The notes under the pieces are model-generated. The model did no database searches. It saw only the letters and a list, made by a program, of their open reading frames with translations, and was not told the DNA's origin. The translations under genes were made by a program, and so were the position numbers. Below are positions 1-12,654 of a DNA stretch of 12,654 nucleotides, piece by piece. The first letter of the stretch is position 1; every line of letters begins with the position of its first letter. This DNA comes from Lachnospiraceae bacterium (GTDB lineage: Bacteria > Bacillota > Clostridia > Lachnospirales > Lachnospiraceae): assembly GCA_016282745.1 (NCBI GenBank), contig JAEELL010000052.1:1-12654 (forward strand). Reading direction: 5' to 3'.

Positions 1-1049
1 TATAGAGGGTGGAAGTGCAGGAAGAAAGATTGGAATCCTTGATAGGGATGTATGCTTTGGAAATAAATTATGCACTTTCAATTCTAAAGAGATTGTTAAT
101 AGATATATTTATTACTATCTCCAAAGCTATGAGTTTAAGGCATTTTTTATGGATAATATGTCCGGAATTATTGGCGGCGTAAGTATAAAAAAACTTAAAG
201 AGCTTCCAATTCCGGTGCCTACTGTGCCTGAGCAAAAAGCAATAGTTGCCAAGATAGAGGAACTTCTACCTTATGTAGACCGCTATGCCGAGGCTTATGA
301 GAAGCTGGAACAGTTTAATGCCAAGTTCCCGGAGGATATGAAGAAGTCTATCCTTCAATATGCAATTGGTAGAGCAGAGAGCTGAAGAAGGAACGGCTGA
401 AGAACTGTATCAGCAGATTAAGAAAGAAAAGCATAAGCTAATACAGGAAGGAAAAACAAAGAAAGGAAAGCCTTTTGCGGAAATCTTGGGGGATGAGATA
501 CCATTTGATATTCCAGAGAGTTGGAAGTGGGTTAGATTGATTGATGTAGTAGTGGATAAACCTACAAATGGTTATTCGCCTAAAGGTGTTGATTATGTCA
601 CGAACTATAAGAACCTTACACTGACAGCAACTACCGCAGGATATTTTAAATATGATGCGTTTAAATATGTTGATATTTCAGGAGAAGAAGCAGAAAAATA
701 TTGGTTAAAGCATAATGACATATTAGTTCAGCGTAGCAATTCGAGAGAATTAGTAGGAACCAGTTGTATATATGACGGTAACGATGACAAATATATATAT
801 CCTGACCTGATGATGCGGTTTCACACCATGCCAAACATATGTGTACAGTATATTGATTATGTATTGAAGTCGCCCTTTGTAAGACAATATTATTCAAAAA
901 ATGCGACAGGAACTTCAGAAAGCATGCCTAAAATAAATCAGGCAATAGTTTCATCCACTTTAATTCCGTTGCCACCTTTGGCGGAGCAATATCGAATTAC
1001 TGCAAAGATCGAAGAACTTCTGCCTTATTGCGACAAACTGAATAAGTAG
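1..1049 (+). pseudogene. hsdS: Type I restriction-modification specificity subunit HsdS. The 5' end lies outside the window and the gene is interrupted by a frameshift in the central conserved region (ORF fragments 2..385 and 360..1049).
   Basis: Frame 2 is open from nt 2 and reads ...GNKLCTFNSKEIVNRYIYYYLQSYEFKAFFMDNMSGIIGGVSIKKLKELPIPVPTVPEQKAIVAKIEELLPYVDRYAEAYEKLEQF...SILQYAIGRAES*. After the stop at 383-385 the homology continues in frame 3 (QLVEQRAEEGTAEELYQQIKKEKHKLIQEGK..., a second target-recognition domain, then the distal conserved repeat LIPLPPLAEQYRITAKIEELLPYCDKLNK*). The two near-identical LP..P..EQ..I..KIEELLPY motifs are the hallmark conserved repeats of HsdS. The frame switch falls inside the conserved ...LQYAI(QGK)LVEQ... 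helix around nt 355-375. Confidence 0.8.
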
Positions 1050-1057
1050 TATTTATA

Positions 1058-1093
1058 CGGAGATGGGAACTTAGTCCATCTCCGCTATTTTTA
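1058..1093 (+). terminator. Rho-independent terminator downstream of hsdS
   Basis: Perfect 9-bp stem CGGAGATGG (1058-1066) / CCATCTCCG (1076-1084) with a 9-nt loop, followed by CTATTTTTAT. It starts 9 nt after the hsdS stop. Confidence 0.65.
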
Positions 1094-1290: not shown

Positions 1291-1392
1291 TGAAAAAAAG
1301 TAAAAAATAATGGACTTTTTGAAAATCCACTTCAAATGCCCGAAAATACTGATAAAGTACATTTTATAAAAAGTGTACTTTATTTTTATTAT
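1291..1392. repeat. Left copy of a ~100-bp direct repeat (partner at 9664-9766, about 93% identical). Contains a palindrome AAAGTACA-N12-TGTACTTT.
   Basis: Direct alignment: tgaaaaaaagtaaaaaataatggactttttgaaaatccacttcaaatgcccgaaaatactgataaagtacattttataaaaagtgtactttatttttatt versus the 9664-9766 copy. There is one single-base indel, two mismatches (tcc/cac) and three changes in the palindrome spacer. It embeds TTCAAA(1331-1336)-16nt-TAAAGT(1353-1358) and an inverted repeat AAAGTACA (1354-1361) / TGTACTTT (1374-1381) followed by a T-run. Confidence 0.85.
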
Positions 1393-1609
1393 AGTCAAAT
1401 AAATAACCATAAATAAAGTTCATTTTTAATGCTTGCCAAATGATAAATGATAGAATAATAAAGTAAAATTATAAATTCTAAATATCCATATATATTTTTC
1501 CCAATTTCGAAATAAAATATGATAGAATTATCTTATAAATTAATGATCGGATAAAGCAATAAATTTATACAACTTTCAAACATTCGTCTCTAGGATAGGA
1601 GGAATGCTT

Positions 1610-3520
1610 ATGACTATATATAAATGTAAAATGTGCGGTGGGAATCTAGAAATAAAAGATGGTGATTTAACATGTACATGCGAGTATTGTGGAACTAAAC
1701 AAACCTTGCCCAAACTCACCTCTGAAATAAAAGCCAATCTTTACGACCGAGCAAATCATTTTCGTAGAAATAATGATTTTGACAAAGCCATGAGTATCTA
1801 TGAAAAAATTCTAAACGAGGATAAGACCGATGCAGAAGCATATTGGTCTTTGGTTTTATGTCTTTACGGAATCGAGTACGTCAAAGATCCTCAAACAGGT
1901 AAAATGATTCCAACTATTAACAGAACTCAGTACACATCTATCTATTCTGACGAAAACTACAAATCAGCAATTCATTACGCAGATTCTATGCAGAAATCCA
2001 TATATAAAGAAGAAGCAAAAACTATAGATTCCATACAAAAGAACATTCTGGAGATTTCAAAAAAAGAAGAACCTTTCGACATTTTCATCTGCTATAAAGA
2101 AACTGATGATAGTGGAAGAAGAACTCCTGATTCCGTACTTGCAAATGACTTATATCATCAGTTAACAATCGAGGGTTACAAAGTATTTTTCTCTCGAATC
2201 ACATTAGAAGACAAACTGGGCACTGCTTATGAACCGTATATTTTTGCTGCTCTTAACAGTTCTAAAGTTATGGTTGTAATTGGCACAAAACCTGAATATT
2301 TCAACGCAGTATGGGTAAAAAACGAATGGAGCAGATATCTCACTTTAATCAAAAACGGGGAAGATAAAACTCTGATTCCTGCTTATCGTGATATGGACCC
2401 TTATGATTTACCTGAAGATTTCAGTCACCTTCAGGCACTTGATATGTCTAAACTTGGCTTTATGCAGGACTTAATCCGAGGCATCAAAAAAATTGTAACT
2501 CAGAATACTATTCCACAAAACGAAAAAGTAATTAACTCAAATACTGATTTACAACAACAATTGGAAATGCTCCAACAACAATTAAAACAACAACAGTTGC
2601 AATCCAACAGCAATATAACTGCGTTACTTCAACGTGGGAATATGGCTTTGGAAGATAAAGACTGGAAAAAATCTGATGATTTTTTTGAAGAAGTGTTAAA
2701 TCAGGATGCCCAATGTGCTGAGGCATATTTAGGAAAATTACTTGCAAAAAACACTTCCACAACTTTCGACGAATACATTGATAGCATCATAAATAAATAT
2801 GATAAACCAGAAACAAAAATGATTGAAGTTTGTAAACCAAATCAAAATCACATTGAAAAAATAGCAAATGAATATTATATTCCAAGCTATTATGAAAAGA
2901 AAGATATAATAGCTGAATACTATAAATTTGATAGAACTATTGAAATAATTGATATAAATTCCATTTTAAAAAATAAAGATGATGCAATTAATCATATTAA
3001 GCAAGATTCTTTATTTAAGAGAACACAACAGTATGCCAACAATAAAACTTTAGAAATAATAAATTCAGGATTAGCAAAAATAAACGAGCATTATGAACAA
3101 AATCGTGAAACAGCTGAAAAACACAATAAAAATGAAATTTTCAATCTAACTGATAAATATAATAAACATATAAAAGCAACTGATGAAATAATAAAGAAAA
3201 ATAAGGTGAAAGCAATAGAACTTATGGAGCAAAATTATCAAAGAGCTATTGAAATGTTTAATATTGCAAACTCATTATGGGATTACAACAGTGTAAAAAC
3301 AGAATTTATGAATCTAGCAGAATACAAGAATGCAACTGAATTCATACAAAAATGTAACGATTATATAGAAATGTATAAAAAAAATCAAGTATATTATGAT
3401 CTTGAAAAAGTAATAGCTTTTGAAAAAAGCAAGAGGAAACAAGATACAGTAGTTATTGCTATTTTTATAGTAGTCCCGATTATACTTATATTAGTCATAA
3501 TCATTATAAATAATTTCTAA
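1610..3520 (+). CDS. Large TIR-domain protein (paralog 1). Layout: N-terminal zinc ribbon, TPR-like helices, TIR domain (about nt 2072-2495), a second TPR-like segment, Q-rich coiled coil, long helical region and a C-terminal transmembrane anchor.
   Basis: AGGAGG at 1597-1602 is 7 nt before the ATG at 1610. The track ORF starts at 1604 in the same frame, only 1 nt after the SD. CxxC...CxxC motif: KCKMCGGNLEIKDGDLTCTCEYCGT. TIR motifs: FDIFICYKETDDSG (box 1), GYKVFFSRITLEDKLG, IFAALNSSKVMVVIGTKPEYFNAVWVKNEWSRYL with a conserved Glu in the WxxNEW position. TPR-like segments AEAYWSLVLCLYGIEYV and LLQRGNMALEDKDWKKSDDFFEEVLNQDAQCAEAYLG. C-terminus VVIAIFIVVPIILILVIIIINNF is a hydrophobic helix. 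About 55-60% identical to the 6131-8536 protein across the first ~300 aa. Confidence 0.8.
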   Translation: MTIYKCKMCGGNLEIKDGDLTCTCEYCGTKQTLPKLTSEIKANLYDRANHFRRNNDFDKAMSIYEKILNEDKTDAEAYWSLVLCLYGIEYVKDPQTGKMIPTINRTQYTSIYSDENYKSAIHYADSMQKSIYKEEAKTIDSIQKNILEISKKEEPFDIFICYKETDDSGRRTPDSVLANDLYHQLTIEGYKVFFSRITLEDKLGTAYEPYIFAALNSSKVMVVIGTKPEYFNAVWVKNEWSRYLTLIKNGEDKTLIPAYRDMDPYDLPEDFSHLQALDMSKLGFMQDLIRGIKKIVTQNTIPQNEKVINSNTDLQQQLEMLQQQLKQQQLQSNSNITALLQRGNMALEDKDWKKSDDFFEEVLNQDAQCAEAYLGKLLAKNTSTTFDEYIDSIINKYDKPETKMIEVCKPNQNHIEKIANEYYIPSYYEKKDIIAEYYKFDRTIEIIDINSILKNKDDAINHIKQDSLFKRTQQYANNKTLEIINSGLAKINEHYEQNRETAEKHNKNEIFNLTDKYNKHIKATDEIIKKNKVKAIELMEQNYQRAIEMFNIANSLWDYNSVKTEFMNLAEYKNATEFIQKCNDYIEMYKKNQVYYDLEKVIAFEKSKRKQDTVVIAIFIVVPIILILVIIIINNF

Positions 3521-3599
3521 TATTATTATTTTTTTATTGTTCTACATATCAGAATAAATATATATGATAAATTAGTATTATGGAAAACGGTCGGATAAT

Positions 3600-3626
3600 T
3601 TGACAAAATACAACTACATTTAATAT
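3600..3626 (+). promoter_or_regulatory. Candidate sigma-A type promoter upstream of the 3686-9530 gene string
   Basis: TTGACA (3600-3605), 15-nt spacer, TAATAT (3621-3626). Perfect -35, acceptable -10, short spacer. Sits in the AT-rich gap after the first TIR gene. Confidence 0.3.
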
Positions 3627-3685
3627 CGTCTCTATACCCGGATTCAAATGAATTAATATACAAATGTAATGAACAAATAAGAATA

Positions 3686-3940
3686 ATGACTGAAAATGAA
3701 AAGAAATCCAAAACAAAAAAGAAAAAATTATTTATAAGTGCAATTACATTTTTATTATCATTCTCAATAATAATATATATCTATATTCCATTAAGATTAC
3801 TACAAGATAACTATAATAAATCAGTTAAACAATTAAATTCTATATCTGCTGGTTCATATCATACAGTTGCACTTAAATCTGATAGTACCGTTGTAGCTGT
3901 TGGTGATAATGAAGATAACCAATGTAGCATATCGGATTGA
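3686..3940 (+). pseudogene. Remnant ORF: N-terminal signal-anchor/TM segment plus a single RCC1-type blade. Probably a decayed fragment of an RCC1 propeller like the one in the 6131-8536 protein.
   Basis: ...SISAGSYHTVALKSDSTVVAVGDNEDNQCSISD* is near-identical in pattern to one blade of the downstream paralog (SRNHTIGLKSDSTVVSTGFNEYGQCAVSDWSGI). The ORF stops at TGA exactly where the paralog has TGG (the Trp of ...SDW). Similarity to the paralog ends after that point. No convincing SD precedes the ATG at 3686. Confidence 0.45.
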
Positions 3941-3994
3941 GAAAATATCGAATTTCCCAAAATGAAATAATTAAACAGAAGGAGGTACACAACC

Positions 3995-5404
3995 ATGTTA
4001 ATAAACAAAGGAAAAGATGATGAAATGATTAGCGTAATAAAACATGAGGGAAACAATGATGTATTCATTTGGAAACATCCAATTGAAGATTTCAATTATG
4101 GAACTCAATTAATAGTACACGAGAGTCAGGAAGCTATATTCTTTAGAGACGGACAGGCCTTGGACTTATTTGGTCCGGGACGTTATACACTTGAAAACCA
4201 GCAGTTACCACTTCTTCAAAATGCATACAATATTCCTTCAAACTCTGCTGATGCATTCCATTCGGAAGTTTATTTCATTAACAAAACTGTACAAATGTCC
4301 ATTAAATGGGGAACTCCTGACAAAGTGCGTTTTATTGATCCACTCAGTAATACGCCACTTGAACTTGGAGCATCAGGAACTATGAACTTACAAGTTCATA
4401 ATTCTAGAAAATTGCTAGTAAAATTAGTAGGAACAACATCCGGCATTGCATGGGACGATAGTAGCCAATACGCTAAGTCATTGCAAGAATCTTTCAGACC
4501 AATGATTGCAAATGCAGTAAAATCAAATCTTCCTGCGATTATTAAAAATGAATCAATTGATTTGTTAGAGATTGATGAAAAGTTAGATTTAATTTCAAAT
4601 GATTTGAAATTAAAGGTTAATCCTGAATTTGAGGAGTACGGTCTTACTATTCCACAGTTCTACGTAACCAATATCGTATTACCTGAAAACGACCCTAATT
4701 TCAAGAGAATAAGAGAACTACATACCATATCGCTCCAAACCAGAATGATTCAGGCTGAGGCAACAGTAAAATATGCACAGGCTGAAAGTGAAGCTAAGTA
4801 TAAAGCTGCGCAAGAGCAAAGTAAAGCAACTATTGAAGCAGCACATCGAGAAGCTGAATTACAAAGGCAATTAACAGAAACCGAGATTGCAAAACGTGAA
4901 GCTGAACGAAGAATTATTGCTTCACAGGCTGAAGCCCAAGCTGCAAAGTTGCAAGGCTTAGCAGAAGCAGAAGTAATGCGTGCTAAAGGTTATTCAGAAA
5001 AAGATGTTATTCAGGCTGAAGTTCAAAAAGCTTATGCCGAAGGTATTGGTAATATGGGACCTTCCATTTCCGGTGGTGGAGGAGGAAGTATTGTTGGTGA
5101 TGTTTTGGGACTGGGTGTTGGAATTGCAGCTGCAGGAAATATTGCCCCTCAAGTTTCAGAAATGATAAAAGGAATATCACCAAATAATAATTCAACTAAT
5201 ACCATTCCTACTCAACCACAGATAAACTTTGACACATGGCAATGTAGCTGTGGAAATGCAAATGCAACAGGAAATTTCTGCAACATGTGCGGAGTAAAGA
5301 AACCTGAGCAAAATATAATATCTGATGCTTGGGATTGCAGTTGTGGTAACACGGGTATTATCGGCAACTTCTGTAACATGTGCGGCAAAAAGAGAGGAGA
5401 ATAA
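3995..5404 (+). CDS. SPFH/Band-7 family protein (YdjI-like, Band_7_1 type). Central Ala/Glu-rich coiled coil, Gly-rich linker and two tandem C-terminal zinc ribbons.
   Basis: GAAGGAGG (3976-3983) upstream of the ATG at 3995. N-terminal region VFIWKHPIEDFNYGTQLIVHESQEAIFFRDGQALDLFGPGRYTLENQQLPLL... resembles the B. subtilis YdjI family (COG4260, 'putative virion core protein'). AEATVKYAQAESEAKYKAAQEQSKATIEAAHREAELQRQ...AEAQAAKLQGLAEAEVMRAKG is the typical SPFH/flotillin coiled coil. Two 24-aa repeats at the C-terminus: WQCSCGNANATGNFCNMCGVKKPE and WDCSCGNTGIIGNFCNMCGKKRGE (CxC..CxxC zinc ribbons). Confidence 0.75.
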   Translation: MLINKGKDDEMISVIKHEGNNDVFIWKHPIEDFNYGTQLIVHESQEAIFFRDGQALDLFGPGRYTLENQQLPLLQNAYNIPSNSADAFHSEVYFINKTVQMSIKWGTPDKVRFIDPLSNTPLELGASGTMNLQVHNSRKLLVKLVGTTSGIAWDDSSQYAKSLQESFRPMIANAVKSNLPAIIKNESIDLLEIDEKLDLISNDLKLKVNPEFEEYGLTIPQFYVTNIVLPENDPNFKRIRELHTISLQTRMIQAEATVKYAQAESEAKYKAAQEQSKATIEAAHREAELQRQLTETEIAKREAERRIIASQAEAQAAKLQGLAEAEVMRAKGYSEKDVIQAEVQKAYAEGIGNMGPSISGGGGGSIVGDVLGLGVGIAAAGNIAPQVSEMIKGISPNNNSTNTIPTQPQINFDTWQCSCGNANATGNFCNMCGVKKPEQNIISDAWDCSCGNTGIIGNFCNMCGKKRGE

Positions 5405-5407
5405 ACT

Positions 5408-6100
5408 ATGAGTAAAAACGAAATAAGAACTTATGTTGTTTTATGTATTATATTTATTGCATTTTCTTCAATTGCATTTGCTGCTCCATTTGATAAAAAT
5501 ACAGTCTTTGGGGTTGCCTATCTGTTTGGTGTATTATCAATTTTAGTACAAATTTATGTTTACAAAGTGGCATACATTGAAAAAGGTAATGCAAGAAGTG
5601 CATTCTACGGACTTCCGATAATCAATATTGGTCTAACATATATAACTGTGCAGATCATAGTTAGTATTATTGAAATGATAATAGCGAAAGAGATTCCTTT
5701 ATGGCCTGTAATTATCGCAAACGTAATTATTCTAGCAATAGCATCTGTTGGTTGTATTGCAGCCGAAACAGTAAGAGATGAGATTGTCCGACAGGACACC
5801 AATGATATACAAAACAAAGTCCAGATCATGAGAGAACTCCAATCCATTTCAGGTTCTCTTGTAACTCTGTGCACAGATGATAATCTGAAAAAAGAGATCC
5901 AAAAACTAGCTGATGAATTTCGATACAGTGATCCAGTTTCAAGTGAGCAAACCTCTGATCTTGAAAACCAGCTAAAATCAAAATTGAATGAACTTCAAAA
6001 ATTAATAAGCGCAGGCAACTTTGATAATTCAAAAGGGCTGTGTGCTGATATTCTATCAACATTAACTGAAAGAAACAGAATCTGTAAGAATAGCAAATAG
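5408..6100 (+). CDS. Integral membrane protein (about 4 TM helices) with a C-terminal cytoplasmic coiled-coil tail. Probably translationally coupled to the SPFH gene.
   Basis: SD AGAGAGGAG at 5391-5399. Start lies 3 nt after the SPFH stop. Four hydrophobic stretches (VVLCIIFIAFSSIAFA, FGVAYLFGVLSILVQIYVY, LPIINIGLTYITVQIIVSIIEMII, WPVIIANVIILAIASVGCIAA), then a charged helical tail ...KEIQKLADEFRYSD...LENQLKSKLNELQKLI. No family recognised from sequence. Confidence 0.75.
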   Translation: MSKNEIRTYVVLCIIFIAFSSIAFAAPFDKNTVFGVAYLFGVLSILVQIYVYKVAYIEKGNARSAFYGLPIINIGLTYITVQIIVSIIEMIIAKEIPLWPVIIANVIILAIASVGCIAAETVRDEIVRQDTNDIQNKVQIMRELQSISGSLVTLCTDDNLKKEIQKLADEFRYSDPVSSEQTSDLENQLKSKLNELQKLISAGNFDNSKGLCADILSTLTERNRICKNSK

Positions 6101-6130
6101 TTTATTAATAATTGAAGGGCGGATGAGCGT

Positions 6131-8536
6131 ATGGCAATACTTAAATGTAAAATGTGCGGTGGTGAATTACACTTTGAACCTGATTCAACCATCTGTGAAT
6201 GTGAATACTGTGGTACTAAACAAACAATCCCCAAAATCGATAACGAAAAGAAAATGACGCTCTACGAGCGAGCAAACAGACTTCGCTTCAATTGTGAGTT
6301 TGATAAAGCTGCAAGCGTATACGAGAATATTATTGCTGATTTTCACGAAGAAGCAGAAGCATACTGGGGATTAGTATTGTGCAAGTACGGAATCGAATAT
6401 GTCGATGATCCTGTAACAGCAAAAAAGATTCCGACATGTCACAGATCTTCCTTTGACAGTCTGGCTGACGATGCTGACTTTGAAATGGTTATGGAATATT
6501 CTGATTCGACAAGCAGAAAAGTATATCGTGAAGAAGCAAAAACAATTGAAAATATTAGGAAAAGCATTATTGAAATTTCAGGAAAAGAATCTCCTTACGA
6601 TATTTTTATCTGTTACAAAGAGACTGATGAAAACGGTGAGAGAACTATTGATAGTGTTATGGCTCAGGATATCTATGAGCAACTGGCATCGAAAGGTTAC
6701 CGCGTATTTTTTTCCAGAATATCTTTAGAGGACAAAGTAGGAGTAGAGTATGAGCCATATATCTTTGCTGCATTGCAATCGGCCAAAATAATGCTGGCAA
6801 TTGGCACTGATTATGACTATTTTAACGCTGTCTGGGTAAAAAATGAGTGGAGCCGCTTCTTAAAATTAATGGTTCACGATAAATCTAAGTATCTGATTCC
6901 ATGTTTCAAAAATATTGATGCTTTTGATATTCCAAAAGAATTTGCACGGCTTCAGGCTCAAGACCTCGGAAAAGTTGGTGCAATTCAAGATTTACTTCGT
7001 GGAATCGACAAACTTATTAAGCCGAACTCTTCAATAACAGAAAACAATGATACCATAAAAGAGACAATCCCTATAGTTGTCCATGAAGGCAAGAATTCTG
7101 ACGCTTTACTTAAGCGTGGAAAGATGGCATTAGAAGATAAAGATTGGATAAATGCCGAAAAATACTTTGATCAAGTATTAGATATGAATGCAGAGTGTGG
7201 AGAAGCATATTGGGGATTAGCTCTGGCAACAGCACAGTGTTCTGACAATGAAGAATTTTCGAAATTATATTCAAATGGTTTAGAGGAACTCAAAAAAAAT
7301 TTTCAAATTTTCACAAAATTTGAAAATAATTATAAAAGAGCAATTCAATTTGGAGGCAAAGAATTCTCTGATCTTATTAACAGACTTGAAGATTATAAGT
7401 TAGAGCAATTAGAATATGAGAAGACAATCCGATTGGAATTAGAATATTTGAGGGAAGATAGATTAAAATACTCAATATTATGTAATCAAATTATTACATC
7501 AAAAGGAAATATAACTTTGGCGCTAAAAAGTGATGGAAAACTATTAATCAGTGGAATGGCTTCATCAAATCAATATTCTAATTTGTTAACTTGGAAAGAT
7601 ATTATTATGATTTCAACAAGCAGAAATCATACAATAGGCTTAAAATCTGATAGCACTGTCGTTTCTACCGGATTTAATGAGTACGGACAGTGTGCTGTTT
7701 CTGATTGGTCAGGTATTATTCAAATTGCTTGTGGTGATAATTTCACAATAGGATTAAAAAACAATGGAACAGTTGTTTCCACCGGCAACAATCAATATGG
7801 ACAATGTAATATTTCTAATTGGTCTGATATCATTCAAATCGCTTGTGGTGATTATTTCACATTAGGATTAAAAAAAGACGGCATGGTCGTTTCTACAGGT
7901 TCAAACAAACATGGACCATGTAATGTTTCTAATTGGTCTGGCATCATTTATATTGCTTGTGGAGCTGATTTTTCATTAGGACTAAGAAGCGATGGAACTG
8001 TTGTCTCTACAGGTTACAACGAATCTGGGCAATGCAATGTTTCTGGTTGGCATGACATTATTTCTATTGCTTGTGGACTTGATCATGCAGTTGCAATTAA
8101 AGAAGATGGCAAATTAATCGCTACCGGCTCAAATATGAAGAAACAATGTAATGTCACCGATTGGTCTGATATTGTTTTTATTGCATGTAATGATACTAAT
8201 ACTATTGGCATCAAAAAAAATGGATTATTAATATCAACATCCAATGCCCCTAAATCATATAATTTTGTTGCTTATTATCAACATAAACAAAGTCTCTTTG
8301 GAAATATCGAAAACTTTAATAATTGCAAATTATTTAATAATATTTTAACTCTTGAAGTGGAAAGAAAAAAGGCTTTTAGCGATAGATTAAAGCATTTAAG
8401 AACCGAAAAAGAAAAACTCGAAAATAAATTGACTAATTTGCATGGTATTTTTTCATTTAGTAATCGTAAAATATTAGAAGAACAATTAGATGAAGTTGAA
8501 GATGAAATAAAAGTATTGAGTAACAGTAATCTATAA
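6131..8536 (+). CDS. Large TIR-domain protein (paralog 2). Layout: zinc ribbon, TPR-like helices, TIR domain (about nt 6593-7016), a second TPR-like segment, coiled coil, a 7-bladed RCC1-type beta-propeller (about nt 7493-8246) and a C-terminal coiled coil.
   Basis: N-terminus MAILKCKMCGGELHFEPDSTICECEYCGTKQTIP matches paralog 1. TIR motifs: YDIFICYKETDENG, GYRVFFSRISLEDKVG, IFAALQSAKIMLAIGTDYDYFNAVWVKNEWSRFL. Seven ~36-40-aa repeats of the form HTIGLKSDSTVVSTGFNEYGQCAVSDWSGIIQIACGDNF / TIGLKNNGTVVSTGNNQYGQCNISNWSDIIQIACGDYF / ... (RCC1/ATS1-like blade pattern). Ends with a charged heptad-like tail ...DRLKHLRTEKEKLENKLTNL...EEQLDEVEDEIKVL. Confidence 0.85.
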   Translation: MAILKCKMCGGELHFEPDSTICECEYCGTKQTIPKIDNEKKMTLYERANRLRFNCEFDKAASVYENIIADFHEEAEAYWGLVLCKYGIEYVDDPVTAKKIPTCHRSSFDSLADDADFEMVMEYSDSTSRKVYREEAKTIENIRKSIIEISGKESPYDIFICYKETDENGERTIDSVMAQDIYEQLASKGYRVFFSRISLEDKVGVEYEPYIFAALQSAKIMLAIGTDYDYFNAVWVKNEWSRFLKLMVHDKSKYLIPCFKNIDAFDIPKEFARLQAQDLGKVGAIQDLLRGIDKLIKPNSSITENNDTIKETIPIVVHEGKNSDALLKRGKMALEDKDWINAEKYFDQVLDMNAECGEAYWGLALATAQCSDNEEFSKLYSNGLEELKKNFQIFTKFENNYKRAIQFGGKEFSDLINRLEDYKLEQLEYEKTIRLELEYLREDRLKYSILCNQIITSKGNITLALKSDGKLLISGMASSNQYSNLLTWKDIIMISTSRNHTIGLKSDSTVVSTGFNEYGQCAVSDWSGIIQIACGDNFTIGLKNNGTVVSTGNNQYGQCNISNWSDIIQIACGDYFTLGLKKDGMVVSTGSNKHGPCNVSNWSGIIYIACGADFSLGLRSDGTVVSTGYNESGQCNVSGWHDIISIACGLDHAVAIKEDGKLIATGSNMKKQCNVTDWSDIVFIACNDTNTIGIKKNGLLISTSNAPKSYNFVAYYQHKQSLFGNIENFNNCKLFNNILTLEVERKKAFSDRLKHLRTEKEKLENKLTNLHGIFSFSNRKILEEQLDEVEDEIKVLSNSNL
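7493..8246 (+). repeat. Intragenic tandem DNA repeats (period about 114-120 bp, 7 units) encoding the RCC1-like blades
   Basis: Recurrent nucleotide blocks such as tggtctgatatcattcaaatcgcttgtggtgat...acagttgtttccaccggc...caatatggacaatgtaat repeat across the 3' part of the gene. Confidence 0.6.
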
Positions 8537-8552
8537 AAAATAGGAGAATTAT

Positions 8553-9530
8553 ATGGATATAAATATTAACAGCACTAAAAAACCACAAGTTTTATTATTA
8601 GGAAATGGATTGCTACAAGCATTTGGCGATACAGTTTCGTGGTCAGATTTAGTTAAACAAATGCATATAAATAGCAATGTAGACAAAGATCTATTATTTG
8701 CTAACATTCCTTTTCCTCTAGAAATAGTAATTAGAACAAACGATAACGTAGATACACAAATAAAAGATATAACTATATCTGACAATAATACATTTGCCAA
8801 CAAATCCGTCACTCCTGAATTATATAAACGCTTAGAGAAACTGATTGACTGTGGTTTTGATCATATTCTAACAACAAATTATGGATATGAAATAGAAGCA
8901 GTTGCAATTGGCAAAAATAGCATTAACGATTATTCTTTAACAAAAGGAAAAGATCATACTGATATTGTTAAAAGAGCTGAAAATAAATTCTATCTACATA
9001 CATATTACACATTCAACAACACAAATATATGGCACATTCATGGAGAAGGCAAAAATCCTAACAGTATTATCTTAGGACATTATTATTATGGAAATTTACT
9101 TACAAAATATAAAAAATATCTTGATTCTGTTGGATACAAATATGAATATCGTCAGCAACACAAACAACCACAAATAATAAATAGTTGGATTGACGCTTTC
9201 ATTTTAGGCGACATATATATTTTAGGCTTAAGTATGGATTTTTCAGAGTTAGATTTATGGTGGCTAATCAACAGAAAAAAGAGAGAAAAAGCAAATACAG
9301 GAAATATTTATTTCTTTGAACCAAATGATTGCAACACCTTTAATACAAAAATCGAATTATTAAAATGTTACAATGTCACAGTTGAGAATTGTAATATTTC
9401 ATTGATAAGAAATGATGATAATACAGAAAAGCCCGAATTGAATGTTAAGGAAAAAAATAATGAATTGTATAGACTGTTTTATGACGCGGCAATAGATAAT
9501 ATAATAAATAGGCAAAAAAATTATTTATGA
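8553..9530 (+). CDS. SIR2-like (SIR2_2 / ThsA-type) domain protein. It is a stand-alone SIR2 domain of about 325 aa with no SLOG or Macro domain.
   Basis: SD AGGAG at 8541-8545 is 7 nt before the ATG. Motif order matches ThsA/DSR-type SIR2: QVLLLGNGLLQAFGDTVSWSDLVKQM (Rossmann G-x-G loop, GNG variant), DHILTTNYGYEIE (TTNY(D) catalytic-Asn motif), NIWHIHGE (His motif), DIYILGLSMDFSELDLWWLI (GxSxxD motif), with ThsA-like spacing. Confidence 0.75.
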   Translation: MDININSTKKPQVLLLGNGLLQAFGDTVSWSDLVKQMHINSNVDKDLLFANIPFPLEIVIRTNDNVDTQIKDITISDNNTFANKSVTPELYKRLEKLIDCGFDHILTTNYGYEIEAVAIGKNSINDYSLTKGKDHTDIVKRAENKFYLHTYYTFNNTNIWHIHGEGKNPNSIILGHYYYGNLLTKYKKYLDSVGYKYEYRQQHKQPQIINSWIDAFILGDIYILGLSMDFSELDLWWLINRKKREKANTGNIYFFEPNDCNTFNTKIELLKCYNVTVENCNISLIRNDDNTEKPELNVKEKNNELYRLFYDAAIDNIINRQKNYL

Positions 9531-9560
9531 TTTTTTCTGTGGTTAGAATACAGCATTGTG

Positions 9561-9587
9561 CAAGTACAGAATCCTGTACGTTTTTTA
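9561..9587 (+). terminator. Probable rho-independent terminator after the SIR2-like gene
   Basis: Stem GTACAG (9564-9569) / CTGTAC (9574-9579), loop AATC, then TTTTTT (9581-9586). The stem is short and AT-rich, so only moderate confidence. Confidence 0.45.
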
Positions 9588-9663
9588 GCAAATAAAGTAC
9601 ATTTTTTCAAAATTCTAGTTTTTACTTTTCGATATGGAAATAGTAGAATAAAGTACATTTTTC

Positions 9664-9766
9664 TGAAAAAAAAGTAAAAAATAATGGACTTTTTGAAAAC
9701 ACACTTCAAATGCCCGAAAATACTGATAAAGTACATTTTTTCAAAAGTGTACTTTATTTTTTTATC
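9664..9766. repeat. Right copy of the ~100-bp direct repeat (partner at 1291-1392). Additional AAAGTACATTTTT half-sites lie just upstream at 9593 and 9650.
   Basis: tgaaaaaaaagtaaaaaataatggactttttgaaaacacacttcaaatgcccgaaaatactgataaagtacattttttcaaaagtgtactttattttttta. The same TTCAAA(9705-9710)-16nt-TAAAGT(9727-9732) and palindrome AAAGTACA(9728-9735)-N12-TGTACTTT(9748-9755) as the left copy. Confidence 0.85.
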
Positions 9767-10261: not shown

Positions 10262-10489
10262 TTGGCAAAGAAATCTGAAAGGTTGATTAACCGTGTCGGT
10301 ATTTTTGTCAATGATTCTATTAATTTAGTGTATATTAAATATAATTTGCATAAACATATTCATACAAATTTATATCATGATATAGTATATGAATTGCTGT
10401 TATTAGGAAAGAATTCATATAAAAAGACATATGAAATATTGGGGTATATGAAAAATGTATTAAGAGCAGCTAGTGATGCAACACCATAG
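10262..10489 (+). CDS. Hypothetical small protein (75 aa, TTG start in track). Weakly supported.
   Basis: ORF with non-ATG start and no clear SD. Its stop (10487-10489) overlaps the AGGAGG of the next gene, so coupling is possible. No recognisable domain. Confidence 0.3.
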   Translation: MAKKSERLINRVGIFVNDSINLVYIKYNLHKHIHTNLYHDIVYELLLLGKNSYKKTYEILGYMKNVLRAASDATP

Positions 10490-10499
10490 GAGGATAAAA

Positions 10500-11084
10500 A
10501 TGGAATGTTTTAAATACTTATATAATCAATTTGTAGAAGCGATCAATTCTTGGAATGTAGATAAGATACGTGCAGTTTCTGTAATGGTATATTCAAACGA
10601 ATGTTACGTTTACAGAGGAGTTAAAAATTTTTTTGAGGTTTCTATCGGATATATTCCGTGTTTTGGTGATTCTGATGTATTAGACACTGATGCACTTATA
10701 GATCGAGAAGAAGTAAGTGTAGTGGTTGATCCTTATGAAAAAGAAGATATTGGAGCCGCAAAAGTTTGGGATTGGTTACACAGTATTAAAGTTGAAAATA
10801 TTGGATTTGAAGATGAAACTCAGATGTATGATGATGATTTAAATTATATAGGAAAAGGACCAAATGGATATTTTGAATTGTTGATGCTTGTTTCAGATGT
10901 AATGCGTGAGATACAGTCTAATGGAATTGTCAGTCAGAGATTTGATAAAACACCAGTGATTGTCCATGAGTTAAATTCTGCTTGGTATATAGAAGGTGCT
11001 ACTAGAAATGCAAATCCTAATGGAGAAGCGGACGAGTTTTTGGATTATCTAACAAATTTCTTTCAATATTGTAAAGAATTATAA
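10500..11084 (+). CDS. Hypothetical acidic cytoplasmic protein (about 194 aa)
   Basis: Perfect AGGAGG (10488-10493) is 6 nt before ATG 10500. The track ORF begins at 10473 in the same frame, but 10500 has the SD. Rich in D/E (…DSDVLDTDALIDREEVSVVVDPYEKEDIG…DETQMYDDDLNY…). No family recognised. Confidence 0.7.
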   Translation: MECFKYLYNQFVEAINSWNVDKIRAVSVMVYSNECYVYRGVKNFFEVSIGYIPCFGDSDVLDTDALIDREEVSVVVDPYEKEDIGAAKVWDWLHSIKVENIGFEDETQMYDDDLNYIGKGPNGYFELLMLVSDVMREIQSNGIVSQRFDKTPVIVHELNSAWYIEGATRNANPNGEADEFLDYLTNFFQYCKEL

Positions 11085-11184
11085 GCTTCTAGTGTATATT
11101 TGGAATTTTTAATACTATTCCTCTTTAAACATTAATATTTCCTATAATTATCTGATTAAAAAACTAATAATTCAAAAAATAAGT

Positions 11185-11222
11185 GAGTTGTAAAGTAAAT
11201 TTGGGAATTATCAATTTAGAGA
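11185..11222 (+). promoter_or_regulatory. 38-bp module AGTTGTAAAGTAAATTTGGGAATTATCAATTTAGAGAG, copy 1. Promoter-like -35/-10 plus SD, immediately before an ORF start.
   Basis: Identical 38-mer also at 12295-12332. Contains TTGTAA ... TATCAAT and ends in AGAGAG 2-6 nt before ATG 11226/11229. Confidence 0.5.
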
Positions 11223-11225
11223 GTA

Positions 11226-11504
11226 ATGATGAAGAGGAGGTCTGGAGAATTCTTTCTGCCGATTGTAATGAACAGCATTAGGTGTATCAAAAAATCACCG
11301 CAGTCCTATTCTTTAAATACAATTTGGTTACCATCAATACACACCGTATTTGGTACTGAATGGGATAATAAATTGACAGTTTATAATTATTATGGAGATA
11401 AAAGTATTCCTGAAATTTTTGATGATTACTATGATTTAGTAGATATCGATGAATTCCAAATTTATTATATGGGATTTATAATTAATCCAATAATATTGAA
11501 TTAA
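11226..11504 (+). CDS. Hypothetical small protein (about 92 aa). The start may be ATG 11229.
   Basis: ORF directly after the 38-bp module. Acidic C-terminal half (…IPEIFDDYYDLVDIDEFQIYY…). No recognisable domain. Confidence 0.5.
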   Translation: MMKRRSGEFFLPIVMNSIRCIKKSPQSYSLNTIWLPSIHTVFGTEWDNKLTVYNYYGDKSIPEIFDDYYDLVDIDEFQIYYMGFIINPIILN

Positions 11505-11524
11505 GTTTTTACTAGGAGGTTAAT

Positions 11525-12295
11525 ATGCAAAAATCAAAAGACATTTTTAAAATTATTTTTATTATACTAGCGTCCACTATTTTCGTTCTGATAGTCGGGT
11601 TGATTATTCTCATATTCATTTCTAAAAATGAGTACAAAAATACTTCCAAAGCATTAGAAGAAAATTATTATATTTATGAAGACAGTAATACCAATACTTG
11701 TATAGTGAAATGTAAAAATTTAATGTATGAGATTAATGGACATATGTATAAGCGGAAAGCACCGTATGTATATTTTATTGTCGACAACGAAATTTCTGAA
11801 AACCAACTATCAATTTTACATAACCATAACCACGGAAACTATTATATTTCCCCCCACAATGAGGATGAGAAAGATATTGCGGTTTCGGTATATGCGAGAC
11901 CAAATATCAATCAATTAACATTAGCACTGCGCAACAAAAAAACATCTTGGCCAATGAAAGAGAAATCGATAACTCTTAACAAAGCCAATGAATTTGTTGT
12001 TGAAATGCTGCTAAAAAACAAAATTAAATTCAAATATAATGATACTTCTTTAATATTTTTCTCTGAAAATGAATACAAAGTAGATTTGAAAGATGGAGCC
12101 AATGTAAATACTTATGACGTCATCGTAAAAGAACAAGAGGATGCTGCTCAAATATTAATTAAAGATCATGAAGCTGATATTTTAACCGGACAAATATATT
12201 TAAGCGGTTATGATTTCATTCTTGAAGCTGGCAAAAATAGTTTGGGAATTCCAAAAGGTGAAAAGTTGAAGTTTGACACTTTAGATTACGAATAG
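11525..12295 (+). CDS. Hypothetical membrane-anchored protein (N-terminal TM helix, then about 220 aa non-cytoplasmic domain)
   Basis: AGGAGG (11514-11519) is 5 nt before ATG 11525. N-terminus KIIFIILASTIFVLIVGLIILIFI is hydrophobic. The rest is a polar domain with no recognisable family. Confidence 0.7.
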   Translation: MQKSKDIFKIIFIILASTIFVLIVGLIILIFISKNEYKNTSKALEENYYIYEDSNTNTCIVKCKNLMYEINGHMYKRKAPYVYFIVDNEISENQLSILHNHNHGNYYISPHNEDEKDIAVSVYARPNINQLTLALRNKKTSWPMKEKSITLNKANEFVVEMLLKNKIKFKYNDTSLIFFSENEYKVDLKDGANVNTYDVIVKEQEDAAQILIKDHEADILTGQIYLSGYDFILEAGKNSLGIPKGEKLKFDTLDYE

Positions 12296-12332
12296 TTGTA
12301 AAGTAAATTTGGGAATTATCAATTTAGAGAGG
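12295..12332 (+). promoter_or_regulatory. 38-bp module, copy 2 (identical to 11185-11222). It begins at the stop codon of the preceding gene and ends 5 nt before ATG 12338.
   Basis: Exact 38/38 identity with copy 1. AGAGAGG serves as the SD for ATG 12338. Confidence 0.5.
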
Positions 12333-12337
12333 TCAGT

Positions 12338-12654
12338 ATGTACATAATAATACATAGACATGGAGAGGAAGAAAAATTTATTGGTACGTTTCAAGACAAA
12401 GACTTTGTAAATGAAGTCATTGAACGTTATAAACAATTTGAGGGATTCAATAAATATAAGGATGGATTTATTGTTCTTGAGCCACCTTATCGAGGTAAAG
12501 ACATTCTTCAAAAAAGAGAGGTTGTTTATATAGTTGTATCTTACGAGTGGGATTATTCCATTTGGGATGATGGAGACGAAGTAGATGTTAGGTATCATAT
12601 TATATTTGACAATGAAAAAAGTGCACAAAAATATCTTGATTCAATGAAAAAAGA
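12338..12654 (+). CDS. Hypothetical protein, 3'-partial (open to the window end, more than 105 aa)
   Basis: ATG 12338 with SD AGAGAGG. Open frame to 12654: MYIIIHRHGEEEKFIGTFQDKDFVNEVIERYKQFEGFNKYKDGFIVLEPPYRGKDILQKREVVYIVVSYEWDYSIWDDGDEVDVRYHIIFDNEKSAQKYLDSMKK.... Balanced, charged composition, unlike the overlapping minus-strand ORF 12281-12628, which is low-complexity F/I/L/K/N. Confidence 0.65.
   Translation, partial: MYIIIHRHGEEEKFIGTFQDKDFVNEVIERYKQFEGFNKYKDGFIVLEPPYRGKDILQKREVVYIVVSYEWDYSIWDDGDEVDVRYHIIFDNEKSAQKYLDSMKK

Follow-up and report, generated by a model that had tools for sequence, protein, structure and literature searches.

In Bacillus subtilis, YdjI (SamI) is a soluble protein of the SPFH type that carries a zinc finger at its C-terminus and is brought to the membrane by YdjG and YdjH (PMC8581546). 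It needs YdjG/H and works in membrane-stress signalling (PMC8581546; bioRxiv 10.64898/2026.02.06.704340), and YdjG itself begins with a zinc ribbon (MIISYKCPNC, read from a primer; PMC8581546). The immune SIR2 (SIRim) group holds AbiH, ThsA, DSR2 and FAM118B (bioRxiv 10.1101/2024.09.18.613514; PMC13064643), of which AbiH is a single-gene system with a predicted sirtuin-like protein (PMC13064643). In animals, SIRanc (FAM118B) acts downstream of the TIR-containing Toll-like receptors. Here we describe a block of genes that shares parts with each of these systems, in a 12,654-nt stretch of DNA (the window) from a Lachnospiraceae bacterium (GenBank assembly GCA_016282745.1, contig JAEELL010000052.1). 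The block is one member of a large, common and uncharacterised gene-cluster family of gut and rumen Clostridia, the conserved unit of which is a zinc-ribbon-TIR protein in one to four paralogs, an SPFH protein with zinc ribbons and a protein with four transmembrane (TM) segments (the 4-TM protein). A SIR2-like gene, where present, is a facultative cassette that sits directly after a TIR paralog. We read the cluster, with a probability of roughly 0.45, as a membrane-platform TIR NADase system that would serve anti-phage defence by abortive infection. The genes of the block are as follows:

1610..3520, + strand: TIR-A, a TIR protein (TIR_2 E=2.9e-12; full-length homologues of the same type in loci L058, L020 and L024)
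3686..3940, + strand: an 84-aa open reading frame (ORF) with one TM helix (residues 13-40) and a single RCC1 blade (RCC1_2 E=1.8e-08)
3995..5404, + strand: SPFH protein of the Band_7_1 (YdjI/SamI) type (Band_7_1 E=1.1e-35, 123.7 bits against a cut-off of 24)
5408..6100, + strand: 4-TM protein of 230 aa, with four hydrophobic segments within residues 5-124
6131..8536, + strand: TIR-B, a TIR protein (TIR_2 E=7.2e-11; RCC1_2 E=9e-51)
8553..9530, + strand: stand-alone SIR2-like (SIRim/AbiH-like) protein, assigned from Pfam, homologues, AlphaFold2 (AF2)/Foldseek and motifs

All genes of the block lie on the + strand in the ORF analysis of the window, and the window genes could also be read on a longer contig piece (L001, 20.6 kb, JGI metagenome 3300041006). 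An earlier note on this DNA had named two TIR proteins, an SPFH protein with two zinc ribbons, a 4-TM protein and a SIR2-fold protein as a co-directional set; all of them are real, and profile searches recovered TIR_2, Band_7_1 and RCC1 for the ORFs to which these domains had been assigned, at E=7.2e-11 or better.

Loci were fetched with three anchors: the SIR2-like gene (80 genome loci, nearly all from metagenome-assembled genomes of gut or rumen Clostridia, 50 of them at least 12 kb long), the TIR module (80 metagenome loci, 33 of at least 12 kb) and the 4-TM protein. An SPFH and/or 4-TM gene in the same orientation stands in 29 of the 33 long TIR-anchored loci, the SPFH gene and the TIR module occur together in 28 of them, and one to four TIR paralogs are found per TIR-anchored locus. 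Three further TIR-anchored look-ups gave one or two TIR genes with Band_7_1 and a ~230-aa protein, and no SIR2. The 4-TM anchor returned four distinct contexts, each with TIR proteins alongside and a Band_7_1 gene directly upstream of the 4-TM gene (4/4), and one with a SIR2_2-like gene as well. The SIR2-like gene is present in 6 of the 80 TIR-anchored loci. We call the zinc-ribbon-TIR, SPFH and 4-TM genes the unit because, in these neighbourhoods, SPFH and 4-TM are near-obligate and the SIR2-like gene is rare, and we are highly confident that this triad exists as a functional unit.

These counts change the picture drawn by the earlier note, which had taken TIR and SIR2 for the defining pair, with the SPFH and membrane genes as an embedded insert. 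The pairing fails in both directions, since most TIR-anchored loci carry no SIR2-like gene and 41 of the 50 long SIR2-anchored loci carry no TIR or SPFH gene, and the supposed insert turns out to be the near-obligate partner of the TIR genes. A composite of two systems, which had also been considered, is not the best description of a triad that behaves as one unit. What recurs in the neighbourhoods is the triad; SIR2 is optional and can be replaced by DUF2971.

TIR-A consists, in order, of an N-terminal zinc ribbon, a helical, TPR-like region and a TIR domain, after which a long helical tail rich in K and N leads to a TM anchor at the C-terminus. Its longest ORF begins at 1604, and the start at 1610 is likelier because AGGAGG lies 7 nt upstream and homologues begin with M-x-I-x-KCKMCGG. 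The TIR domain is encoded at ~2081-2452, with the catalytic Glu of the motif WVKNEW at codon 2324-2326 (codon verified), and the sole hydrophobic helix found by a hydropathy scan lies at the extreme C-terminus (residues ~611-638, counted from the ORF start at 1604). In TIR-B, a zinc ribbon, a helical region and a TIR domain (~6602-6973; catalytic Glu codon 6845-6847, verified) are followed by TPR, by RCC1 beta-propeller repeats (RCC1_2, five or more blades in tandem 114-nt units, ~7481-8260) and by a C-terminal coiled coil. The scan found no TM helix in TIR-B, which is therefore taken to be cytoplasmic. The two proteins are 57% identical across the first 295 residues. We ruled out that TIR-A is a truncated TIR-B pseudogene, as full-length homologues with the same tail-anchored layout exist. 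The 84-aa ORF between TIR-A and the SPFH gene, absent from the gene list of the earlier note, aligns to residues 451-540 (the TM helix and first blades) of a full-length zinc-ribbon-TIR-TM-RCC1 protein in L095 and, on this alignment, is read as a truncated remnant of a TM-RCC1 segment.

E239, the Glu of WVKNEW, is invariant in all 19 aligned homologues, and we equate it with the Glu that is catalytic in TIR NADases, from what is established on the WxxxE/CLxEL motif. The AF2 model of the N-terminal TIR module has a mean predicted confidence (pLDDT) of 82, and the best Foldseek matches of its TIR part are C. elegans TIR-1/SARM1, plant TIRs, SPARTA TIR-APAZ and AbTir. The features of the TIR NADase superfamily, a TIR fold and a conserved catalytic Glu, are present (TIR_2 E of ~1e-11 to 1e-12; Foldseek TIR matches). 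The cluster proteins share both with multidomain TIR proteins such as the SARM1/TIR-1-like proteins, SPARTA TIR-APAZ and AbTir; unlike the cluster proteins, however, these have no zinc-ribbon/helical head, no tails made of a TM helix plus an extracytoplasmic propeller and no SPFH/4-TM partnership.

The N-terminal module spans ~295 aa (zinc ribbon, three helices, beta-hairpin, TIR domain). It is 63-77% identical to TIR-B among the listed database matches and fetched loci, with more than 3,700 protein clusters found, and the first 150 residues alone match the representatives of 5,036 clusters built at 50% identity, with E<=1e-30 for 2,373. Among the top 150 scorers, the match to this 150-residue head sits at the extreme N-terminus, mostly in proteins of 600-1,600 aa. 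The C-terminal regions across the family are mostly unalignable to one another; in a set of 94 non-redundant tails, RCC1 occurs in 36 and DUF6273 in 25, and the remainder include TPR, LRR_5 and Ank. TM helices, which were assigned throughout by a simple hydropathy scan, divide the 151 full-length TIR proteins as follows:

No TM helix and no RCC1 after the TIR module: 46 of 151
One TM helix followed by another domain of unknown type: 33 of 151
One TM helix, then RCC1: 26 of 151
RCC1 without a TM helix (the TIR-B type): 23 of 151
Four TM helices after the TIR module: 12 of 151
C-terminal TM anchor only (the TIR-A type): 6 of 151
Two or three TM helices after the TIR module: 5 of 151

TM segments follow the TIR module in 82 of these 151 proteins, and about half of the family is predicted to be inserted in the membrane with the zinc-ribbon-TIR head inside and a variable domain outside, a receptor-like layout. 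Between close relatives with flanks 93-99% identical (L099 against L097, and L157 against L155), the C-terminal or accessory segment is replaced wholesale.

The SPFH protein is built from the SPFH domain, an A/E/Q-rich coiled coil, a Gly-rich stretch and two C-terminal CxC..CxxC zinc ribbons. It has no N-terminal TM helix, the sole stretch above threshold being a marginal Gly/Ala-rich segment at residues 366-384, and a PDB sequence search gave no match for it. The 4-TM gene, which the earlier note had overlapping the SPFH stop, begins with an ATG (5408) after a 3-nt spacer from that stop (5402-5404). Its product carries a helical, cytoplasmic tail after the four hydrophobic segments, has no match in Pfam, NCBIfam, PADLOC, PHROG or PDB, and has 428 homologues that are uniform in length (~228-230 aa for those listed). 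By analogy with YdjG and YdjH, it is presumed to be the membrane anchor of the SPFH protein.

The features of the YdjI/SamI type of Band_7_1 protein (the domain, the C-terminal zinc finger and an adjacent membrane-protein gene) are all present, and the resemblance to PspA-YdjGHI (SamGHI) extends further: the SPFH protein is soluble, with a low-complexity/coiled-coil region, it adjoins membrane-protein genes, and YdjG starts with a zinc ribbon as the cluster TIR proteins do. Homology of the TIR head to YdjG was dropped as anything other than a lead, as only the zinc ribbon aligned (E=3e-4), and this to a provisional YdjG sequence. The cluster differs from SamGHI in that its zinc-ribbon proteins carry TIR and variable sensor domains, and in that its membrane partner is a 4-TM protein matching no family in the libraries searched, for which no direct comparison with YdjH was made. 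PspA is not listed in the gene-called contexts, and no window ORF matched PspA/Snf7.

The main rival to a defence function follows the SamGHI likeness: the cluster would be an envelope-stress or environment sensor, an elaborated SamGHI/YdjGHI-type complex in which the TIR proteins replace YdjG and turn cues, such as cell-wall damage or glycans of the host or community to which RCC1 or DUF6273 domains bind, into an NAD+ change or a nucleotide signal that adjusts physiology. Such a role would suit the YdjI type of the SPFH protein, with YdjI acting in membrane-stress signalling together with YdjG/H, the zinc ribbon shared with YdjG (MIISYKCPNC), the highly conserved and very widespread N-terminal module, and the predicted transmembrane, outward-facing layout of about half of the TIR proteins. 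Against it stand the lack of a listed PspA gene in the gene-called contexts and the 4-TM partner without a recognised family, and also the optional SIR2-like and DUF2971 cassettes and the exchange of sensors between near-identical strains, which are typical of conflict systems. We regard this stress-sensing role as somewhat unlikely.

Other genes recur in the clusters. A small gene for a ~154-aa protein was seen in 12 loci (e.g., L091 3138-3710), almost always between cluster genes, and a zinc-ribbon and TPR protein without a TIR domain in nine (e.g., L086 16708-17226). Small ribbon-helix-helix or helix-turn-helix genes are often first in the operon.

The SIR2-like protein of the window, taken alone, is below threshold for SIR2_2 (E=0.0015, 19.1 bits against a cut-off of 24.5). 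Its family has more than 1,500 homologues of ~300-330 aa; of 32 sampled, 31 match SIR2_2 and 21 match AbiH, at E down to 4e-08. The window protein itself gave no AbiH (PF14253) match at E<=0.01 and no PADLOC AbiH match. Three motifs are invariant in 32 sequences (G17-N18-G19, T107-T108-N109 and H161-x-H163-G164), and N109 (8877-8879) and H163 (9039-9041) are the putative catalytic residues. The AF2 model (pLDDT 90.5) has ThsA, KomC/HAM-SIR2 and DSR2 as its top 50 Foldseek PDB matches, and a family profile reaches ThsA (E=0.004), KomC and human FAM118B in the PDB by sequence. Because the homologue matches, the AF2/Foldseek result and the invariant motifs agree, the SIR2 identity is sound despite the sub-threshold Pfam score. 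Thus, the earlier assignment to SIR2_2 holds for the homologues, the fold and the motifs, but not for the window protein's own score. Sequence comparison and the model place the protein in the SIRim group, remote from every named family. PADLOC gave weak matches to some of the homologues (LmuA, ThsA, PDC-S25 and Dsr2; ThsA in 8 of 32) and none to the window protein.

One domain and a long C-terminal helix make up the SIR2-like protein. As the earlier note had stated, it has no SLOG or Macro domain: the AF2 model is single-domain, and Pfam finds only SIR2_2 and AbiH across the family. In being a single-domain SIR2-like protein of ~310 aa, it resembles the stand-alone SIRim proteins AbiH of Lactococcus and human FAM118B/SIRanc, whereas AbiH acts as a single gene and the SIR2-like gene here is embedded in an operon. 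The TIR-receptor-like neighbours of the gene recall the position of SIRanc downstream of Toll-like receptors.

Thoeris is the other system with both folds. The likeness consists of a TIR domain with the catalytic Glu and, in the model, an immune-type (SIRim) SIR2 fold for which ThsA is the top structural match. The differences are that (i) the cluster TIR proteins are multidomain proteins of 636-801 aa with a zinc-ribbon head and sensor tails, (ii) the SIR2-like protein has no SLOG/Macro signal-binding domain, whereas ThsA is SIR2-SLOG/Macro, and (iii) more than 90% of related clusters lack the SIR2 gene, whereas SPFH and 4-TM are near-obligate. No window protein matched the PADLOC ThsA or ThsB models at E<=0.01, and NCBIfam ThcB4 scored 18 bits against a cut-off of 220. 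Canonical Thoeris, which the earlier note had already set aside, is ruled out by the profile models, the missing ThsA sensor domain and the lack of an obligate TIR-SIR2 pairing.

A looser Thoeris-like relay would have the TIR protein make a signal of the cyclic ADP-ribose type on which the SIR2 effector depletes NAD+, with SPFH and 4-TM as accessories. TIR-B, with its catalytic Glu, and the SIR2-like gene are indeed adjacent, co-directional and 16 nt apart, and ThsA is found both among the best structural matches of the SIR2 model and by the family profile. Yet 74 of the 80 TIR-anchored loci have no SIR2-like gene, most SIR2-like genes lie away from TIR, the single-domain protein has no SLOG, Macro or other ligand-binding domain, a DUF2971 gene can take its slot, and the Thoeris profiles do not match. 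We consider such a relay highly improbable.

The position of the SIR2-like gene bears on whether it belongs to the cluster at all. The TIR module and SPFH gene lie near it in 14 of the 80 SIR2-anchored loci (9 of the 50 long ones). In 13 of the 17 cluster-bearing SIR2-anchored loci it is directly 3' of a zinc-ribbon-TIR paralog, and in two more of the 17 it directly follows an RCC1 ORF that belongs to the cluster but was called separately. In L015 and L049 the stop of the SIR2-like gene overlaps the start of the SPFH gene, so it looks operonic. The slot between TIR and SPFH is occupied by a DUF2971 gene in L155 (6508-7443) and by the SIR2-like gene in L157 (6288-7334), with flanks 98.7% identical. 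TIR-associated SIR2-like genes are scattered through the family tree, and the nearest neighbour is itself TIR-associated for 12 of the 22 TIR-associated members against 8 of the 63 others.

It is conceivable that the SIR2-like gene is an independent, single-gene abortive-infection gene of the AbiH type that shares the variable island by chance, with no common function. The 82% of long SIR2-anchored loci without TIR or SPFH genes, the AbiH matches of 21 of the 32 family members, with AbiH a single-gene system (PMC13064643), and the scatter through the tree all point that way. Within clusters, however, the gene nearly always stands directly 3' of a TIR paralog, on the same strand and with short spacers or overlaps; a rate of 14 in 80 looks well above what random placement would give in genomes a few megabases in size (by judgement rather than by calculation); and TIR-associated members are neighbours in the tree more often than the rest (12/22 against 8/63). 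Chance co-location is, in our view, quite improbable.

Outside TIR clusters, the SIR2-like gene is found directly 3' of a DUF2201 (VWA/metallopeptidase) gene in L034, L045 and L062. A cytoplasmic BspA-type LRR_5 protein follows it in L034, where that protein ends in a BRCT domain, and in L062; the contig of L045 ends earlier. Elsewhere the gene adjoins secreted LRR_5 or WD40 giants, or unrelated genes. There are hints of a general pairing of a repeat protein with the SIR2-like gene.

The gene set as a whole appears undescribed, as the earlier note had supposed. Scans of every ORF with PADLOC, NCBIfam and PHROG gave no meaningful match for the cluster, the marginal PADLOC exception at E<=0.01 being PDC-S66 (E=7e-4), and full-text literature searches, incomplete in their coverage, found no paper that joins SPFH/Band-7/flotillin and TIR in defence or describes zinc-ribbon-TIR-RCC1 proteins.

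Cluster locations across the family are non-syntenic, with neighbours that include flagellin, PFK, melibiase, a sigma factor and hsdS. A survey of 114 flanking proteins from ~20 loci, made with no matched control, found a Type IIG restriction-modification enzyme, AbiEi/AbiEii, an Hsp70-DrmB fusion (just upstream in L155; PADLOC DrmB E=6e-78), PDC-S04, and WYL and SoFic proteins, and also resolvases, integrases, a Mutator transposase and ordinary metabolic genes. At some loci, defence, integrase or resolvase genes lie within 7 kb of the cluster. This content is compatible with island-like placement; as the survey was uncontrolled, we do not claim defence enrichment. In L059, a 144-nt direct repeat (1866-2009 and 11112-11255; 97% identical) brackets an SPFH-TIR-TIR-SIR2 block. 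It arose as a duplication of the 3' end of the 342-aa gene upstream, the scar that an insertion usually leaves. The cluster in L015 is bracketed by a direct repeat of 35 nt beside a tyrosine recombinase gene.

The genomic setting speaks on both sides of the stress-sensor question. Housekeeping surroundings at many loci and the absence of the family from phage, plasmid and IMG/VR collections would fit a sensor of envelope stress, whereas conflict systems typically show non-syntenic locations, integrases and direct repeats at their flanks. The TIR module has no relatives in IMG/VR, INPHARED phages or PLSDB plasmids, so that an origin of the cluster in phages or plasmids is not supported. Tyrosine recombinase genes edge TIR clusters in L015 (6475-7416) and L148 (10610-11545), and one lies between TIR paralogs in L049 (5530-6666); the variable TIR tails may thus be shuffled by recombinases, in the manner of hsdS shufflons.

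In the defence system that we favour, the 4-TM protein would tether an SPFH oligomer to the membrane, as YdjG/YdjH do for YdjI (SamI), and this platform would hold the TIR proteins there. TIR-A would be attached through its own C-terminal TM anchor, while TIR-B and others may dock through the zinc-ribbon/helical module. The variable C-terminal domains (RCC1 propellers, DUF6273, TPR) would be the sensors, which lie outside the cytoplasm in about half of the homologues but inside it in TIR-B. A bound ligand or a perturbation of the envelope, such as phage adsorption or DNA injection, could then cluster the TIR domains and switch on NAD+ cleavage, and NAD+ depletion or a nucleotide signal would stop growth or abort the infection. 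In clusters that have it, the SIR2-like NADase would be a second NAD+-depleting effector. As it lacks a domain for sensing ligands, it is probably controlled by contact with the upstream TIR paralog and not by a diffusible ligand.

Several points weigh against this function: (i) We infer the physical interaction of the TIR, SPFH and 4-TM proteins from gene linkage alone. (ii) The anti-phage role and the NAD+ chemistry of the cluster are predicted from sequence and models. (iii) No cluster protein matches a known defence model in PADLOC or NCBIfam. (iv) For an immune gene, conservation of the TIR module is unusually strong. (v) Many clusters sit among housekeeping genes (PFK, flagellin, sugar utilisation). 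(vi) In the flank survey, which had no matched control, enrichment of defence genes was not demonstrated. (vii) The characterised SPFH relatives act in envelope-stress signalling, not immunity (PMC8581546; bioRxiv 10.64898/2026.02.06.704340). (viii) The TM calls come from a simple hydropathy scan. (ix) The SIR2 gene may be an independent neighbour rather than a component, given the scatter of TIR-associated SIR2-like genes through the family tree.

If the triad works as a unit, it would be among the most widespread uncharacterised TIR systems of the gut and rumen microbiota, as its N-terminal module stands at the head of at least 2,373 proteins that are distinct at 50% identity. A membrane-platform TIR system would link TIR NAD+ chemistry, SPFH/flotillin-type scaffolds and receptor-like extracytoplasmic sensors exchanged between strains, which were previously unconnected; it would add a class of TIR partner beyond SLOG/SIR2, STING and Argonaute, and would offer a testable model for the sensing of phage or envelope events at the membrane. 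Should the non-immune alternative hold instead, the cluster would extend stress sensing of the SamGHI type to an NAD+-based output. The block also places the genes for a TIR receptor-like protein and a SIRim NADase next to each other in a bacterium, an echo of the role reported for human SIRanc downstream of Toll-like receptors. A more far-reaching proposal, which we think unlikely, is that gut Clostridia have an abundant class of transmembrane TIR receptors, with an outward beta-propeller or DUF6273 sensor, one TM helix and an inward zinc-ribbon-TIR head, that are mounted on the SPFH/4-TM platform and sometimes coupled to SIRim; these would be a prokaryotic counterpart of the axis from Toll-like receptors to SIRanc (FAM118B) and would provide surface-triggered abortive-infection immunity.

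The flanks of the block hold the following features:

1..1049, + strand: hsdS, Type I restriction-modification specificity gene (Methylase_S E=7e-07; PADLOC Specificity_I E=1.7e-55)
1058..1084, + strand: hsdS terminator, a G+C-rich hairpin and T-run (terminator scan)
1293..1387, no strand: left direct repeat, 95 nt (repeat search of the window)
9564..9579, + strand: terminator-like hairpin and T-run 3' of the SIR2-like gene (terminator scan)
9667..9761, no strand: right direct repeat, 95 nt (repeat search of the window)

The earlier note had correctly seen both the hsdS gene immediately upstream and the near-identical direct repeats on either side of the block, the two 95-nt copies of which are 96% identical. 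Each copy contains a perfect 15-bp AT-rich hairpin (AUAAAGUACAUUUU..AAAAGUGUACUUUAU in the left copy, with an RNA fold z=-6.1) followed by a T-run, and the right copy is preceded by two more partial copies of the 3' motif of the repeat (9592-9629 and 9647-9669). A 15-nt motif, ATAAAGTACATTTTT, occurs seven times in the 20.6-kb contig piece against 0.31 expected (at most two mismatches, both orientations), and all seven copies cluster at the two ends of the block (1352-1427 and 9592-9757), where they could be an array of protein-binding sites or a recombination end. A third copy of the 95-nt repeat was not found in the 20.6 kb that represent the source genome, nor in the other fetched loci, so a dispersed repeat family is not shown. 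Neither the repeats nor the window gave a match in Rfam or tRNA scans, which rules out a known RNA or a tRNA att site for the repeats, and neither an integrase nor a tRNA was found in the window or L001. Given the repeat-bracketed clusters in L059 and L015, it is plausible that the window repeats are insertion boundaries.

The hsdS gene is context, outside the cluster proper. It is split into two ORFs (..385 and 360-1049) with a 26-nt overlap and one Methylase_S domain each. The split could reflect a pseudogene with a frameshift, two S genes of half size or phase variation. On L001, hsdM and the first hsdS ORF lie upstream (hsdS region at L001 21-2141), and hsdR was not seen upstream of hsdM before the contig end. 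On the minus strand, a 39-codon open stretch (1071-1190) encodes a helix-turn-helix-like peptide (FWKYYQMYKTGNINISEMARIMDCSRASVYKYIKIAEMD, then stop). Its stop falls inside the hsdS terminator hairpin, and the stretch lies just outside the left direct repeat; the peptide resembles the C-terminal end left over from a recombinase or regulator.

Downstream of the window, L001 continues into chromosomal genes for a cation ATPase, an AI-2E transporter and cytochrome c assembly. Within the window, five ORFs lie 3' of the block at 10262-12654 (75, 203, 92 and 256 aa, and one of ~131 aa that runs past the window end); the first four gave no credible match in Pfam, NCBIfam, PADLOC or PHROGs, and for the fifth the precomputed Pfam record is blank. 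The 256-aa product carries a TM helix at its N-terminus. A perfect 38-nt direct repeat (11186-11223 and 12294-12331) stands directly 5' of two successive ORFs of unknown function.

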